From NCBI GenBank assembly GCA_036000105.1, contig DASYGE010000012.1:460436-524435 (forward strand): a DNA stretch of 64,000 nt. Reading direction: 5' to 3'. Shown here piece by piece: positions 8,316 to 39,118 of this stretch. The position numbers and the translations under genes are program-made. This DNA is from Gammaproteobacteria bacterium (GTDB lineage Bacteria; Pseudomonadota; Gammaproteobacteria; Natronospirales; REEB76). Position 1 is the first letter of the stretch; each line of letters begins with the position of its first letter. The notes under the pieces are model-generated. The model saw only the letters and a list, made by a program, of their open reading frames with translations. It was not told where the DNA came from and did not search any database.

Positions 8316-8486
8316 GAAACGCTCACCTTGATCGGAAGTGACTTCGGTATCGGCCGCGCCCTTAAAGGAACGGCGATTTACCTTAATTTTGAATTGGCGC
8401 TATTGAGCCATAGGGGCGGGAGCGCTGTCGAGGGTAGTTCAGGGATGGGCCGGGCATTTCCAGGCGCTTCAGGCCTGAAAATGGAG

Positions 8487-8512
8487 CCGGGCAAAACCCC
8501 GCTTTTGCCTGG
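8487..8512 (-). terminator. putative intrinsic terminator after the LysE-family gene
   Basis: On the minus strand, a GGCAAAA-gcgggg-TTTTGCC stem (extendable) is followed by CUCCAUUUUCA. Confidence 0.4.
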
Positions 8513-8560
8513 CGCACTGAAAAGGCCAGGGACAGACCTTCTCAAGCAAATGGTCGGAGG

Positions 8561-15334: not shown

Positions 15335-16021
15335 ATGAGTGAAGACGACAAGCAGGAACGGAAGGCGGCGAGGATCCGCCGTTATATGGCGGAGTTCAAT
15401 GAAGGCTTCGAGCGGCTCTCGACCATCGGGCCCTCGGTGAGCGTGTTCGGTTCGGCCCGCACCGCGCCGGAAGATCCGCGCTATGGCCTGACGGAACGCA
15501 TCGGCCGTCTGTTGTCGGATGCGGGCTTCGCAGTGGTGAGCGGTGGCGGCCCCGGCCTCATGGCGGCGGCCAACCGGGGTGCCTACGCGGGCAAATCGTC
15601 CAGCATCGGTCTCAACATCCAGTTACCCCATGAGCAGCACGTCAATCCCTATCAGGACCTGACGCTCTCGTTCCGGCACTTCTTCGCCCGCAAGGTGATG
15701 TTCGTGCGCTACGCTTGCGCCTATGTGGTGTTGCCCGGCGGCTTCGGCACCCTCGATGAACTGGCGGAGGTCCTCACTCTGATCCAGACCGGCAAGAGCC
15801 GGCGCGTGCCCATCGTGCTGGTGGAAGGCGCGTTCTGGAATGGGCTCTTGGACTGGATGAAGCAGAAGATGGCGGGCGGAGGCCTGATAGGCCCAGAGGA
15901 TCTGGAACTGTTGCGGGTGGTGGAGAGAGCAGAGGAAGTATTGCCGGCCATCCTCCAGCATTACGGCGAACGTCACTACAGCCCGACGCCTGAAGAAGAC
16001 GACATCATGTTCGAGCTCTAG
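15335..16021 (+). CDS. LOG family protein (TIGR00730-type nucleotide phosphoribohydrolase)
   Basis: Start set at the ATG after an AGGAGA RBS. GGGPGLM and PGGFGTLDE motifs. Confidence 0.85.
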   Translation: MSEDDKQERKAARIRRYMAEFNEGFERLSTIGPSVSVFGSARTAPEDPRYGLTERIGRLLSDAGFAVVSGGGPGLMAAANRGAYAGKSSSIGLNIQLPHEQHVNPYQDLTLSFRHFFARKVMFVRYACAYVVLPGGFGTLDELAEVLTLIQTGKSRRVPIVLVEGAFWNGLLDWMKQKMAGGGLIGPEDLELLRVVERAEEVLPAILQHYGERHYSPTPEEDDIMFEL

Positions 16022-16287
16022 GAGCCCGGGCGGTCTCCCGTATCGTCTTTGTCCACTTCATCCAGCACCGCTGAATAATCCGTCGCCAGCACTTCCCGCG
16101 CGGCCTTCGCATCGCCCCGCGTCACCCGGAGCTTGATGCCGCCCAGGGCGATGGAGTAGAGCCAGTCCATCTGCACCATCTGCTCGTCGAACAGCTGCGC
16201 TTCTATGCCTTCCGCCAAGAGCCGGCCCAGCGCGATGTGCGCATCGATGACTTTGTCGTAAGTGGCGATGGTGACGAATTCGTCCAT
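16018..16287 (-). CDS. DUF2007 domain protein (putative signal-transducing protein)
   Basis: Trimmed to MDEFVTIATYDKVIDAHIALGRLLAEGIEAQL..., a typical DUF2007 beginning. Its stop codon overlaps the LOG gene stop (convergent). Confidence 0.6.
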   Translation of the reverse strand: MDEFVTIATYDKVIDAHIALGRLLAEGIEAQLFDEQMVQMDWLYSIALGGIKLRVTRGDAKAAREVLATDYSAVLDEVDKDDTGDRPGS

Positions 16288-16469
16288 ATCCGCGCGCAGG
16301 TCTTTTGGGGGTGGAGGTTCGCGGGGCTCACGCCAGCCTTGCACGCTTTCCCTGAGGGGCAGCGCGAGGGTGCGCACCAGATGGGTCAGAGCGGCGATGC
16401 TGAACACGGCCCCCCCCGCGTCGGCCGGCAAGCGGTCTTAGAGAACAATTAAAGCACAACTGCGACGGG

Positions 16470-16680
16470 CTCGGATTACAGCAGTACTTGGATATAGGCG
16501 TGATGCCGGGAGCATCACCCGCGAAACAGTCACGTAAGTGACTGTTTCGGCGGAGAAGCGTCCGGGCCTGTACCGGACGCGACGAATCTGTAAAAGGCCA
16601 AGGATGGCCTTTTACAGAAGAGATATAAAAGACCCCGGCGGTAAGGGGACCGCCGGGGAGAGCCTTCTTGGCTGGAGGTG
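16470..16680 (+). ncRNA. candidate GGA-rich structured RNA (plus strand); boundaries and existence unproven
   Basis: Five consecutive perfect hairpins at 16500-16518, 16522-16549, 16558-16580, 16587-16618 and 16633-16658. Three loops carry GGA on this strand (CGGGA, AAGGAU, UAAGGGGA). I counted 9 GGA vs 1 UCC in 16441-16700. No plus-strand U-tract terminator. Confidence 0.2.
16621..16658 (-). terminator. intrinsic terminator oriented on the minus strand, orphan with respect to annotated genes
   Basis: Minus strand reads CCCCGGCGG-UCCCCUUA-CCGCCGGGG followed by UCUUUUAUAUCU. The nearest upstream gene (pip) is on the other strand. Confidence 0.6.
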
Positions 16681-16890
16681 ATTGGTGCTACTGCACCACA
16701 TCGATGGGCCTGAATCCTTTCGTCCTACCCGGGCCCCGGTCCTAGATACATCCTTGTCCCGCCATTCCATGGCGGTTCAGGCAGGTGTTACTCTGGCCCT
16801 GGCGGGTGAGGCTTAAAGCCAGCGGATGCCGACAGAAGCCGTAGGACAATCCCTACAAGCTCCTAGAGCTCCGCCCGCTCGGGCGACCCT
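16621..16890 (-). ncRNA. candidate CsrA/RsmA-binding sRNA (minus strand); 5' end unknown
   Basis: The minus strand of 16700-16907 has 10 GGA vs 3 UCC. These include GGACAAGGAUGU (16748-16759), an 11/12 match to the CsrA SELEX consensus RUACARGGAUGU, and a CCGCCAU-GGA-AUGGCGG hairpin. Ends in the terminator at 16621-16658. No ORF >=60 aa lies in 16453-16825. Confidence 0.35.
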
Positions 16891-16907
16891 GAAGGAAACC
16901 GCTCCTT

Positions 16908-17864
16908 ATGGCCGACTACTACCCACCCCTGGAGCCCTATGCCGTCCACCGCCTGGCGGTGGATCAGCCCCACGAGGTCTATGTCGAAGAGTGCGGCAAC
17001 CCCCAGGGGCTGCCGGTGGTGTTCGTGCACGGCGGCCCGGGCGGCGGCTGCACCCCGGATAACCGGCGCTTCTTCGATCCCGCCCGCTACCGCATCGTGC
17101 TGTTCGACCAGCGGGGCTGCGGCCGCTCCCGTCCCCACGCGGAACTCGCCGGCAACACCAGCCCCGCTCTCGTGGCCGACATGGAGAGCATCCGCAGGCT
17201 GCTCGGCATCGAGAAGTGGGTGGTGTTCGGCGGCTCCTGGGGTTCGACCCTAGCGCTGCTCTACGCCGAGACCCACCCGGAGCGGGTGCGGGCTCTGGTG
17301 TTGCGCGGCATCTTCCTCGCCACCCGCGCGGAACTCGACTGGTTCTATTACTCCGGTCTCAAGCACATCTTCCCGGAGCACTACGATGACTTCCTTTCGC
17401 TCATCCCCACAGCGGAACGCGGCGATCTGCTGCGGGCTTATTACCGGCGTCTCACGGATGCGGACCTGGAAGTGCGTCGGCGTACGGCGGAAGCCTGGTC
17501 ACTGTTCGAGGCGCGCTGTTCGACGCTCTTGCCCAGCGATTCCCTGGTGAGCCTCTACACCGGGCCCGAGGTGGCCATCGCCGTCTCGCGCATCGAATGC
17601 CATTACTTCATCAACGGCTGCTTCCTGGCTGAGGATCAGCTGATTCGCGATGTGCGCCGGGTGCGTGGCATCCCGGGGGTCATCGTGCAGGGCCGTTACG
17701 ATGTGGTCTGCCCGCCGGTGTCCGCCTGGCGCTTGAAGCAGGCCTGGCCGGAGGCGGAGTTGCACATCATCCCGGACGCAGGCCATGCGGCCGGCGAACC
17801 CAGCACGCGCAGCAAGCTCGTGGAACTCACGGACCGTTTTGCCCGGGAGCTTCCCGTCCTGTGA
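16908..17864 (+). CDS. pip: prolyl aminopeptidase (proline iminopeptidase)
   Basis: 318 aa. VFVHGGPGGG, FDQRGCGRS and GGSWGSTLAL (nucleophile elbow) motifs. Confidence 0.9.
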   Translation: MADYYPPLEPYAVHRLAVDQPHEVYVEECGNPQGLPVVFVHGGPGGGCTPDNRRFFDPARYRIVLFDQRGCGRSRPHAELAGNTSPALVADMESIRRLLGIEKWVVFGGSWGSTLALLYAETHPERVRALVLRGIFLATRAELDWFYYSGLKHIFPEHYDDFLSLIPTAERGDLLRAYYRRLTDADLEVRRRTAEAWSLFEARCSTLLPSDSLVSLYTGPEVAIAVSRIECHYFINGCFLAEDQLIRDVRRVRGIPGVIVQGRYDVVCPPVSAWRLKQAWPEAELHIIPDAGHAAGEPSTRSKLVELTDRFARELPVL

Positions 17865-18313: not shown

Positions 18314-18570
18314 GGTGCATTGACGAAGACGGCTTTTGGCCTATGCTATAGAAACGCTCCCCGTGACCGAATCTGAGAACCTTAAGGCACATCTCGCCAG
18401 CGCTCCCCGCAACACCCATGGGTCCCATCCACTACTGAGTCTCCCATGCAATGTCCTGAGCTATTGAGCCACGACAGGGGTATGCCGTGCCCACCGCATA
18501 GGTGTTGCGCGCGCGAGTCTGCACAAGCCCATGGACGGCTTGTGCGGAAATCATATAAAGGACGACTCGC

Positions 18571-19305
18571 ATGTTGTTGATCCCCTCCATGGAACTGAAG
18601 GGCGGCAAGTGCGTGCGCCGCAAGCCAGGCAAGGGCAACGAGACCACGGCCTATGCCGATGATCCGGTGGCGCTGGCACGCCAGTGGGTGAAGGCGGGCG
18701 CGCGGCGCCTGCATGTGAGCGATCTCGACAGTCTCGCTTCCGGCAAACCGGCGCACACGGCGCTCTTGCGGGAGATCGTGGCCGCCTGCCCCGGCGTGCC
18801 GGTGCAGGTGGGCGGCGGCATGCGTAGCGAAGAGACAGTGCTTCCCTATATAGAAGCAGGCGCGGATTTCGTGGTGCTCGGCACCCGTGCCGCCACTGCA
18901 CCCCATCTCGTCAACGATCTCTGTCTCGAATACCCGGGCCACATCATCGTGAGCCTGGACGCCAAGAACGGCAAAGTGGCGGCCGAAGGCTGGTCGAAGA
19001 TGTCGGACACGGACGTGACGGAGGTGGCGGAACACTTCCAGCGGGAAGGCGTAGCCGCCATCGTGTATACCCCGGTGGGTGACGCTGCCGTGGGCGGGAT
19101 GCAGGCGGCGGCGGAAGTGGCACGCGTCCTCGCCATCCCGGTGATCGCCGCAGGCAGCGTGGCTACGCTTGAGGATGTGCGGGCCCTGTGCGGGGCGGTG
19201 GGCCAGGACCTTCTGGGCGCTATCGTCGGCGACGGTCTGAACGGCGGCGCTTTGGACCTAGGCCAGGCGCAGAAGCTCGCCGACAGTCTCAGTACCAAGG
19301 CCTGA
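18571..19305 (+). CDS. divergent HisA/HisF-family TIM-barrel protein
   Basis: 244 aa, alignable by eye to HisA (IPSMELKGGKCV, VQVGGGMRS, SLDAKNGKVAAEGW). Several canonical motif positions are altered. AAGGA RBS. Confidence 0.65.
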   Translation: MLLIPSMELKGGKCVRRKPGKGNETTAYADDPVALARQWVKAGARRLHVSDLDSLASGKPAHTALLREIVAACPGVPVQVGGGMRSEETVLPYIEAGADFVVLGTRAATAPHLVNDLCLEYPGHIIVSLDAKNGKVAAEGWSKMSDTDVTEVAEHFQREGVAAIVYTPVGDAAVGGMQAAAEVARVLAIPVIAAGSVATLEDVRALCGAVGQDLLGAIVGDGLNGGALDLGQAQKLADSLSTKA

Positions 19306-19329: not shown

Positions 19330-19509
19330 CGAGCCGCTTCGCTTGCATTCTGATCGGAAAGGTTTTCCTAACCTTTCCGATTCGCTCGCGCGGTAGAACC
19401 CGTGCGCACCGTCCCCTTCGCATCGTGCTACGGGTCCGACCCAGGGCCGTCTTCCTGACGGCCCGCTCACTGCTGTGCAGTGAGCCCCCGTGTTCAGGTC
19501 CAAGCGGCA

Positions 19510-33989: not shown

Positions 33990-34007
33990 CAGAATCAGGC
34001 CCGGGCC

Positions 34008-34355
34008 ATGCAGACAGACGCCTTGAGCACCACCTTCGCCGCCCTGGCGGACCCCACCCGCAGGGCCATCCTGGTCCGTCTGGCCACGGGGGAAGCCTCA
34101 GTGCAGGAGCTGGCGGAGCCCTTCGAGATCAGCCTGCCAGCGGTCTCCCGGCACCTCAAGGTGCTGGAGCACGCGGGGCTCATCACCCGCAGCCGTCAGG
34201 CCCAGTGGCGTCCCTGCCGCATCGAAGCGGCGCCCTTGCGGAGCGCAGAGGACTGGATAGTCGAGCGGCGCGCGGTGTGGGAGCAGAACTTCAACCGCCT
34301 GGCGGATTACCTCGCCGGGATGGGGAACACCCGAGGCACCGGAGACAAATCATGA
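34008..34355 (+). CDS. ArsR/SmtB family transcriptional regulator
   Basis: FAALADPTRRAIL...LPAVSRHLKVLEHAGLI winged-helix signature. Confidence 0.85.
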   Translation: MQTDALSTTFAALADPTRRAILVRLATGEASVQELAEPFEISLPAVSRHLKVLEHAGLITRSRQAQWRPCRIEAAPLRSAEDWIVERRAVWEQNFNRLADYLAGMGNTRGTGDKS

Positions 34356-38758: not shown

Positions 38759-38767
38759 GTATCAAAC

Positions 38768-39118
38768 ATGCCCGCCGACCGCCTGAGCCCGGTGTTCGCA
38801 GCCCTGGCCGACCCCACCCGCCGTGCCATCCTGGCGCGCTTGAGCCTCGGGGAGACCACGGTCAAGGAGCTGATGCGGCCCTTCGACATGAGCCCGCCGG
38901 CCATCACTAAGCACCTCAAGGTGCTGGAGAAAGCCGGCCTCATCAGCCGTGGGCGCGAGGCCCAGTGGCGGCCCTGTCGGCTCGCGGCGAAGCCCCTCAA
39001 GGGTGTGTCCGACTGGGTGGAGGAATACCGCCGCTACTGGGAACAGAGCTTCGATCGCCTGGACGACTACTTAAGCGAACTGCAGAGCAAGGGGAAGAAG
39101 CATGGCCGCAGGAAATGA
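38768..39118 (+). CDS. ArsR/SmtB family transcriptional regulator (paralog of 34008-34355)
   Basis: FAALADPTRRAILARL...PPAITKHLKVLEKAGLI. Roughly 60% identical by eye to the first copy. Confidence 0.85.
   Translation: MPADRLSPVFAALADPTRRAILARLSLGETTVKELMRPFDMSPPAITKHLKVLEKAGLISRGREAQWRPCRLAAKPLKGVSDWVEEYRRYWEQSFDRLDDYLSELQSKGKKHGRRK

Follow-up and report, generated by a model that had tools for sequence, protein, structure and literature searches.

Small RNAs of the Csr/Rsm class are protein sponges that form the output of the Gac/BarA-UvrY global switch; they diverge fast and have been catalogued in few cultured genera. The RsmX, RsmY and RsmZ RNAs of Pseudomonas belong to a size class of 110-170 nt and are encoded by stand-alone intergenic genes with a palindromic GacA box upstream and a rho-independent terminator. 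Their A(N)GGA motifs, of which each RNA has several, lie in hairpin loops and single-stranded linkers, and six GGA motifs have been reported for RsmX. The CsrB and CsrC RNAs of Enterobacteria and CsrB1 and CsrB2 of Shewanella oneidensis share the functional design of GGA repeats plus a terminator, are 250-450 nt long and hold many more GGA sites. Transcription of RNAs of the CsrB/CsrC type is UvrY-dependent and operates through a box of the type TGTAAG-N6-CTTACA, which is found upstream of csrB and the rsm genes (PMC3171408). For CsrA, systematic evolution of ligands by exponential enrichment (SELEX) yielded the consensus RUACARGGAUGU, in which ACA and GGA are reported to be 100% conserved (Dubey 2005, cited in a review). 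Here we describe the intergenic region between a DUF2007-like gene and pip (prolyl aminopeptidase) in a 64-kb stretch of contig DASYGE010000012.1 (hereafter the window) from an uncultured soil gammaproteobacterial lineage. We put the probability at roughly 0.78 that the minus strand of this region holds a gene for a ~160-nt RNA of the Csr/Rsm sponge class that is activated by GacA/UvrY, and the best reading is that the RNA represents a new family within this known class, belonging to none of its sequence families.

Comparison of the window RNA with RsmX, RsmY and RsmZ revealed agreement in size class, upstream palindrome, rho-independent terminator, stand-alone intergenic position and the placement of several A(N)GGA motifs in loops and linkers, and its six GGA motifs equal the number reported for RsmX. 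In contrast to these RNAs, it resembles none of the Rfam models detectably in sequence or structure at E <= 10, its box has a TGTAGG half-site, it contains an anti-Shine-Dalgarno-like linker (AAUCACCUCC), the loop of its fourth stem-loop (SL4) is AAGAA and lacks GGA, its gene is divergent from pip, and its host belongs to an uncultured soil lineage. It shares with the CsrB/CsrC group the design of GGA repeats plus a terminator, but is shorter (~160 nt) and has only 6 GGA.

Conservation and structure of the predicted minus-strand RNA

To compare the region among relatives, pip orthologues were taken from 80 species-level genomes. With blastn, 160-300 nt of the gap aligned at 72-89% identity to twelve metagenome-assembled genomes (MAGs) of uncultured Gammaproteobacteria, the Pip proteins of which are only 69-85% identical. 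A covariance model of the small RNA (R1) detected 12 genome and 31 metagenome relatives at 48-168 bits, giving 43 related loci. The most conserved 23-mer of the block was found in 31 metagenome contigs, and 31/31 carried the whole element. The pip gene adjoined the small RNA in every copy whose contig extends that far, and the DUF2007-like gene lay on the other flank where the contig was long enough, apart from a few genomes in which it was farther off or not found. Conservation of the left part of the gap, which contains four of the hairpins, was confined to a subset of relatives.

The structure of the small RNA was examined in 35 distinct sequences. This analysis revealed 16 pairs that had changed on both sides, and none of 500 shuffled controls reached any of five structure measures. 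Pairing amounted to 86.9% for the proposed structure compared with 35-49% for controls in which the partner was slid. The well-aligned helices (SL1, SL4 and the terminator) contained 23 G.U pairs versus 1 A.C on the minus strand, which identifies the minus strand as that of the RNA; folding energy was uninformative for choosing the strand of the small RNA. The SL1 hairpin with its GGA loop, picked out in the original prediction, held up well, with compensatory changes in 4/6 pairs. Within SL2, the fifth pair is C-G, A-U or G-C among members in per-sequence folds, and the second GGA sits in a small GAA-AGGA-UUC hairpin; the column-wise pair counts of SL2 are weak because the alignment shifts there. 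SL3 occurs at the same place as GGUGC/GCACC, GAUGC/GCAUC, GAGU/ACUC or UUGAGU/ACUCAA. The coordinates of all features are collected in Table 1.

Six GGA motifs lie within the RNA, and each was kept in 22-35 of the 35 unique sequences, in the exposed arrangement typical of the Csr/Rsm class. The GGA in the SL1 loop was present in 30 sequences, those of the linker (16759..16757, 16753..16751 and 16742..16740) in 28, 33 and 33, and those of SL2 in 22 (16725..16723) and 35 (16717..16715). Identity at the GGA positions was 0.88, compared with 0.65 at other unpaired positions (one-sided Mann-Whitney p = 2.6e-4) and 0.71 at paired positions, so that the GGA motifs are conserved in relatives. The SELEX-like motif noted earlier on the minus strand (GGACAAGGATGT, 16759..16748) was confirmed; ACAAGGAUGU matches RUACARGGAUGU at 11/12 positions, ACA and GGA included.

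We also examined how unusual the GGA content of this region is. The counts given in the original prediction were exact, with 9 GGA on the plus strand versus 1 on the minus strand in 16441-16700, and 3 versus 10 in 16700-16907. The skew of each half falls in about the top 2% of same-size segments of the window, and no other site in the window has an adjacent strand flip this large (3 of 6354 positions, which overlap at this locus). Six GGA in 60 nt (16770..16711, minus strand) rank in the top 0.016% of 60-nt segments; six GGA in 165 nt are reached by 7.6% of segments and are not striking alone. The argument is carried by the conservation and clustering of GGA, not by the raw count. Only part of the minus-strand cluster belongs to the RNA: six of its ten GGA lie inside, and the rest fall in the GacA-type box and the stretch before pip.

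The region upstream of the RNA contains the palindrome TGTAGGGATTGTCCTACG. Its pattern, GTARG-N6-CYTAC, has 1 match in 64 kb compared with 0.03 expected. Relative to TGTAAG-N6-CTTACA, the first half-site agrees at 5/6 positions and the second at 4/6, which is in keeping with the upstream activating sequence of Csr/Rsm genes. In every core-family copy whose upstream flank was available, the distance from the start of the box 18-mer to model position 1 is exactly 71 nt. Two divergent members have a degenerate left half-site together with a perfect CTTACA half at the same position, and in some relatives one half of the box is exactly TGTAAG or CTTACA. A -10-like hexamer, separated from the box by a spacer of variable length, has the family consensus (C/G)A(G/A)A(G/T)T, with A2, A4 and T6 kept. 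The putative transcription start lies at ~16782-16786, which would place the box centre at about -65. Sigma-54 and canonical sigma-70 -35/-10 promoters were considered and rejected, the spacing being unsuitable and only a weak -10 (nAnAnT) being conserved.

At its other end, the element terminates in a GC-rich hairpin. The terminator scan detected CCCCGGCGGTCCCCTTACCGCCGGGG followed by TCTTTTATAT on the minus strand only, and the U tract was conserved in all relatives. A consensus scan found no other terminator-like site in 15900-17200, in agreement with the earlier description of an orphan minus-strand terminator. The absence of any open reading frame (ORF) of >=60 aa from 16453-16825 was likewise borne out by the ORF list. 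A small ORF on the minus strand (16770..16612, 52 aa) was tried and rejected, its start codon and frame not being conserved. Relatives carry indels of 1, 2 and 4 nt, which are not multiples of three, and the element is not protein-coding. In being a stand-alone gene with a rho-independent terminator and no conserved ORF, it has the build of the Csr/Rsm class. Taken together, the comparative data support the original proposal of an independent minus-strand small RNA that ends at the orphan terminator and is built like a CsrA/RsmA sponge.

The polarity of the terminator also bears on whether the element could instead be a plus-strand feature, either a pip 5' leader or riboswitch or a small coding gene behind GGAGGTGAT (Shine-Dalgarno-like, 16674-16682). 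The position of pip downstream on the plus strand fits this idea, as does the opening of a 44-codon ORF (16682-16816) by GGAGGTGAT and a following TTG/GTG. This explanation is exceedingly improbable and is already largely refuted by existing evidence. The start codon and frame of the 44-codon ORF are not conserved, with a stop after 4 codons in one relative (L003) and indels of 1, 2 and 4 nt, and it was rejected as a candidate gene. The hairpin at 16633-16658 is followed by a U tract on the minus strand only, G.U pairs favour the minus strand 23:1, and the box, located between the element and pip, is correctly placed only for a promoter on the minus strand; a pip leader or riboswitch was ruled out on these three grounds.

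The segment of the RNA with the highest conservation is AAUCACCUCC, 9 nt of which are identical to the 3' end of 16S rRNA, making it anti-Shine-Dalgarno-like. The GacA-box-driven minus-strand RNA might then act mainly by base pairing of AAUCACCUCC with the Shine-Dalgarno regions (GGAGGUGAU) of mRNAs, or it might do both jobs. In favour of pairing, the identity of this segment (0.98) exceeds that of the GGA motifs (0.88), and it stays single-stranded between SL3 and SL4 in the consensus fold as well as in the per-sequence folds. We nevertheless regard base pairing as the main activity as unlikely: the six GGA are also selectively conserved, one of them in a loop and one in a near-SELEX context, the more distant pip-linked relatives described below keep the GGA-rich design without AAUCACCUCC, and no target has been identified.

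For the Csr/Rsm sponge assignment, we infer transcription, GacA dependence and CsrA binding as follows. A response regulator of the GacA/UvrY type would bind TGTAGG-N6-CCTAC(G/A), centred ~65 bp upstream of the start, as suggested by the motif and its fixed position, and would activate the weak promoter with the -10 sequence CAGAGT. The predicted transcript would start at ~16784 and run to the terminator (16658..16624), the latter being established by sequence, conservation and covariation; with ends at roughly 16784 and 16625 it would be ~160 nt long, in place of the ~250 nt originally estimated. The RNA displays six unpaired and conserved GGA, one in the SL1 loop, three in the linker (with ACAAGGAUGU) and two in SL2. 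By analogy with known sponges, these motifs would bind several CsrA/RsmA dimers, titrating the protein off mRNA leaders and thereby relieving translational repression.

Table 1. Features of the pip-linked intergenic region and its flanking genes (window coordinates)
Feature	Position	Strand	Basis or remarks
Small RNA gene including box	16857..16622	-	Conserved block from A-run and terminator hairpin to palindrome
GacA/UvrY-box-like palindrome TGTAGG-N6-CCTACG	16840..16857		Minus-strand TGTAGGGATTGTCCTACG; sole GTARG-N6-CYTAC match in 64 kb
-10-like hexamer CAGAGT	16795..16790	-	Conservation profile of 33 unique upstream regions; variable spacer to box
Conserved small RNA, ~160 nt (covariance model R1)	16622..16786	-	160.9 bits in the window
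SL1, CCGCCA-UGGAA-UGGCGG	16759..16775	-	GGA loop at 16768..16766; 94% of cells paired
Single-stranded linker GGGACAAGGAUGUAUCUAGG(A), also given as GGGACAAGGAUGUAUCUAGGA	16740..16759	-	Three GGA; includes ACAAGGAUGU
SL2, outer helix GGGCC/GGCCC around two GGA	16706..16736	-	Helix recovered in most members by per-sequence folds
SL3, GGUGC-AGUA-GCACC	16684..16697	-	Per-sequence folds
Invariant single-stranded linker AAUCACCUCC	16674..16683	-	Mean identity 0.98, 34 unique sequences
SL4, AGCC-AAGAA-GGCU	16661..16673	-	98% of cells paired; A-U to G-C in 6 sequences
Intrinsic terminator, 10-bp GC-rich stem (16658..16633), then UCUUUUAUA	16624..16658	-	Terminator scan; stem 99.7% paired, three covarying pairs
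Four-hairpin module (model R2)	16497..16633	+	Covariation, G.U bias
H1, loop CGGGA	16500-16518	+	Model R2; perfect 7-bp inverted repeat
H2	16521-16550	+	Model R2; perfect 12-bp inverted repeat
Linker GGCGGAG	16549-16555	+	Model R2
H3	16558-16580	+	Model R2; perfect 8-bp inverted repeat
Linker GACGAATC	16581-16588	+	Model R2
H4 with A4 and U4 tracts on its flanks, loop AAGGAU; then A-rich tail	16587-16618	+	Model R2; perfect 14-bp inverted repeat
DUF2007-like gene	16018..16431	-	ORF list and conserved N-terminal extension; start probably 16407 (JGI gene call) or 16431
Likely extended -10 of DUF2007-like gene, TTGTGCTTTAAT	16459..16448	-	In relatives, TTTAAT, TCTAAT or TAGAAT immediately precedes the ORF
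pip (prolyl aminopeptidase)	16908..17864	+	TIGR01249, 393 bits; divergent from small RNA gene

Distant pip loci and the class assignment

In seven more distant pip loci (L026, L024, L040, L050, L028, L032 and L046), among them Thioalkalivibrio denitrificans, three Candidatus Thiodiazotropha MAGs and a Sedimenticolaceae MAG, a palindrome of the GacA type was present 30-150 nt upstream of pip, and the remainder of each 9-kb locus had none. In these loci the box is followed by a GGA-rich stretch on the strand opposite pip, with an intrinsic terminator in 6/7, the loop of which often contains GGA; in L028 the hairpin is followed by no more than UUAUCUUUUUU. The pip-linked RNA of L026 has 10 GGA, and that of L046 (3440-3870, minus strand) is CsrB-sized (~330 nt), with 16 GGA versus 2 UCC. 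These relatives keep the GGA-rich design and lack the AAUCACCUCC motif, and an Rfam search of the seven loci at E <= 1 detected no Csr/Rsm family. By sequence, the same genomic slot is predicted to hold GGA-repeat RNAs ranging from RsmY-sized to CsrB-sized across several gammaproteobacterial families. A search of the literature for a pip-linked Rsm RNA found nothing relevant. The Thioalkalivibrio denitrificans locus also has a long perfect palindrome of TTCAAGA-type units downstream of pip (L026:5389-5471), which gave a spurious match to a miRNA model.

Several results weigh against assigning the window RNA to the Csr/Rsm sponges. Membership of an Rfam Csr/Rsm family was not found: CsrB, CsrC, RsmX, RsmY and PrrB_RsmZ gave no match at the Rfam gathering thresholds over the whole window or at E <= 10 within 16200-17000, and the scans returned only chance-level matches (anti-hemB, gyrA, glmS and miRNA models). 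The accessions of three of these families are RF02144 (RsmX), RF00195 (RsmY) and RF00166 (PrrB_RsmZ). No homolog of csrA/rsmA or uvrY/gacA was detected in the window, which covers 64 kb of a 790-kb soil-metagenome contig, or in the fetched loci; for csrA/rsmA, E. coli CsrA and P. aeruginosa RsmA served as tblastn queries. The half-site of the box is TGTAGG, not TGTAAG, and a strict sigma-70 scan identified no promoter at the small RNA gene, the -10 being weak. Over 165 nt, GGA is only ~2x as frequent as in the background. The most conserved segment, AAUCACCUCC, contains no GGA, and titration may therefore not be the sole function of the RNA. A search of the literature for a pip-linked Rsm RNA found nothing relevant.

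The missing Rfam match, the absence of csrA and gacA from the 64-kb window and the twofold GGA excess would fit a conserved structured RNA of other function, whose palindrome binds a regulator other than GacA and whose likeness to Rsm RNAs is a coincidence in a GC-rich genome. We consider this very unlikely. The palindrome is near the GacA/UvrY consensus and has an exact TGTAAG or CTTACA half in some relatives, the GGA cluster is extreme at the 60-nt scale as well as selectively conserved, and the distant syntenic RNAs have 10-16 GGA and terminators with GGA loops. The Csr/Rsm sponge class, with the RNA as a new family in it, is the assignment that we retain.

The plus-strand four-hairpin module

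The original prediction described five perfect back-to-back hairpins. All five were verified, as were the stems of 7, 12 and 8 bp; the remaining two stems are 14 and 10 bp long (16587-16618 and 16633-16658), not 13 and 9 bp. Comparison with relatives divides them. The fifth hairpin is the terminator of the small RNA, and the other four form a separate accessory module on the plus strand that is not part of the small RNA. The family layout, captured in a second covariance model (R2), consists of H1 with a CGGGA loop; CCGC, H2 and GGCGGAG; H3 with the loop GGGCTWNGCCC; CGACGAGTC; H4; and an A-rich tail. H4 itself comprises an A-tract, a stem, a CARGGAWG loop, the returning stem and a U-tract. 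The stems differ freely between copies, and the loops and linkers are kept.

Compensatory changes were identified in 28/42 pairs among 8 copies of the module. Among 15 copies, 33/42 pairs were compensatory and 96% of cells were paired compared with 76% after shuffling, in an alignment that was fitted to the model and so favours structure. The module contained 21 G.U versus 5 A.C on the plus strand, and 5/8 copies folded more stably on that strand. Across all spacers, GGA was more frequent on the plus strand (185) than on the minus strand (60). Among relatives, a spacer of 35 to ~400 nt separates the RNA terminator from the promoter of the DUF2007-like gene, and the long spacers contain at least one module copy. 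The module is absent from L014, L005/L008 and L009-L013, and is tandemly duplicated, fully or partly, in L004, L111, L083, L091 and L105. No conserved promoter or GacA box was seen upstream of H1 among relatives.

We also searched for copies at other sites. A full second-site copy was found just past the 3' end of pip in L086 (278-414, 51.6 bits), and the window has weaker partial R2 copies in two further intergenic stretches, at 19467..19338 (23.4 bits) and 18468-18563 (21.3 bits). The best R2 score in 522 kb of distant genomes, used as a control, was 12.5 bits. The reverse strand of a true module copy scores 22 bits, and the strand of the weak matches is therefore uncertain; a further weak match (8407-8527) overlaps long ORFs. 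BLAST and direct-repeat searches detected no sequence-level copies of the hairpins in the 64-kb window, copies being recovered only with the covariance model. The suggestion that the hairpins belong to a dispersed family was thus borne out in part, for the four-hairpin module only.

These observations raise the possibility that the four hairpins (16497-16633) are a dispersed palindromic repeat like a repetitive extragenic palindrome or bacterial interspersed mosaic element (REP/BIME) or a miniature inverted-repeat transposable element (MITE), serving as a terminator or insulator array or simply being junk, with no link to CsrA. We hold this to be quite possible, while leaning against it. The module is accessory, in that several close relatives lack it and others carry it in tandem multiples; it has the full second-site copy in L086 and partial copies in the window that score well above the control DNA; and the A-tract, stem and U-tract of H4 follow the design of a bidirectional terminator. 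Like REP/BIME palindromes, it forms clustered intergenic hairpins of strain-variable copy number at more than one locus and beside gene 3' ends. In contrast to such palindromes, the copies have architecture, loops and linkers in common but not stem sequences, no GTAG-type REP head was seen, and the extensive compensatory change (33/42 pairs) fits selection on RNA structure, not recent transposition. The lack of sequence-level copies elsewhere in the window by BLAST also speaks against a repeat, as does the G.U bias (21 vs 5) towards one strand. The conserved unpaired parts contain GGA (CGGGA, GGCGGAG and CARGGAWG, the last matching CANGGANG), which together with the strand bias points to a selected RNA structure.

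The comparative sequence data indicate that the module is a genuine RNA structure of the plus strand, under selection and with exposed GGA, which is accessory to the sponge gene and mildly dispersed. It could act as a second CsrA-binding RNA, as a CsrA-responsive attenuator or as a structured repeat. The plus-strand GGA bias left of ~16680, noted from the raw sequence, reflects this structured element with GGA in its loops. The strand-switching bias of the region is accounted for by the convergence of two structured elements, which meet at the terminator hairpin and each carry GGA on the respective sense strand.

Upstream of a His_biosynth-family gene (ATG at 18571), the plus strand at 18520-18570 has a CGAGTC linker and a 10-bp hairpin, TGCACAAGCC-CATGGAC-GGCTTGTGCG, the loop of which shows CAUGGACG (CANGGANG-type); this is followed by AAATCATATAAAGGAC, with a second GGA in the Shine-Dalgarno region. 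The arrangement has the layout of a CsrA-repressed mRNA leader and resembles H4 and the tail of the module (R2, 21.3 bits). Of the region between dtd and the His_biosynth-family gene, the initial ~200 nt (18314-18512) show conservation in L014 (84.5%) and in L100 and L091 (~72%). A sigma-70-like TTGACG-N16-TATGCT (~18321-18348) stands at their start, which is suggestive of a conserved ~200-nt 5' leader that has no Rfam match. Between the His_biosynth-family gene and tatA, on the minus strand (19338-19467), lies a partial module-like element comprising one hairpin similar to H1, the loop of which is CAGGAAG, and one similar to H4, ATCGGAAAGGTT-AGGAA-AACCTTTCCGAT (R2, 23.4 bits). In L005, an R2 match of 28.1 bits is on the same strand as this element and is also downstream of pip. 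The longest repeat in the window is a 229-nt direct repeat (34007-34235 and 38767-38995; 72% identity, 4.76 kb apart), which probably reflects paralogous genes.

Flanking genes and implications for Gac/Csr circuits

The minus-strand ORF on the left of the region has a hydrophobic N-terminal extension of ~45 residues (PV[F/L/V]SIAAL...) that is conserved at the protein level in many relatives, and the start of the DUF2007-like gene is therefore placed at ~16407-16431. This shortens the intergenic gap to ~476-500 nt; the 620 bp given in the original prediction rested on a left boundary that ignored the extension. The name DUF2007 stands only as a likeness, since it derives from a sub-threshold Pfam match (19.6 bits compared with a cut-off of 25.7), while the assignment of pip was secure (TIGR01249 at 393 bits). 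The sequence TTGTGCTTTAAT is likely the extended -10 promoter of the DUF2007-like gene, judging from its conservation just before the ORF.

A broader reading is that the locus is a two-RNA convergent system of a kind undescribed for Gac/Csr circuits, in which a GacA-driven sponge with a AAUCACCUCC anti-Shine-Dalgarno seed is combined with plus-strand GGA-loop modules. We regard this as rather unlikely. If it were true, the minus-strand RNA would both titrate the protein and pair directly with ribosome-binding sites, and the ~125-nt modules, a new and strongly covarying family without a GacA box, would undergo tandem multiplication and reach further intergenic sites. The modules would then be a second class of CsrA-binding RNA, or CsrA-responsive attenuators directed toward pip and antisense to the sponge gene.

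For the sponge class as a whole, the locus shows that GGA strand skew in raw sequence can locate sponge RNA genes. With the covariance model, and with pip as synteny anchor, sponges can be sought in a widespread uncultured soil gammaproteobacterial lineage, and the locus also draws attention to candidates among sulfur oxidisers (Thioalkalivibrio, Thiodiazotropha and Sedimenticolaceae). The AAUCACCUCC segment and the convergent GGA-loop module, which are the part that is possibly new, provide leads to additional layers of the circuit.

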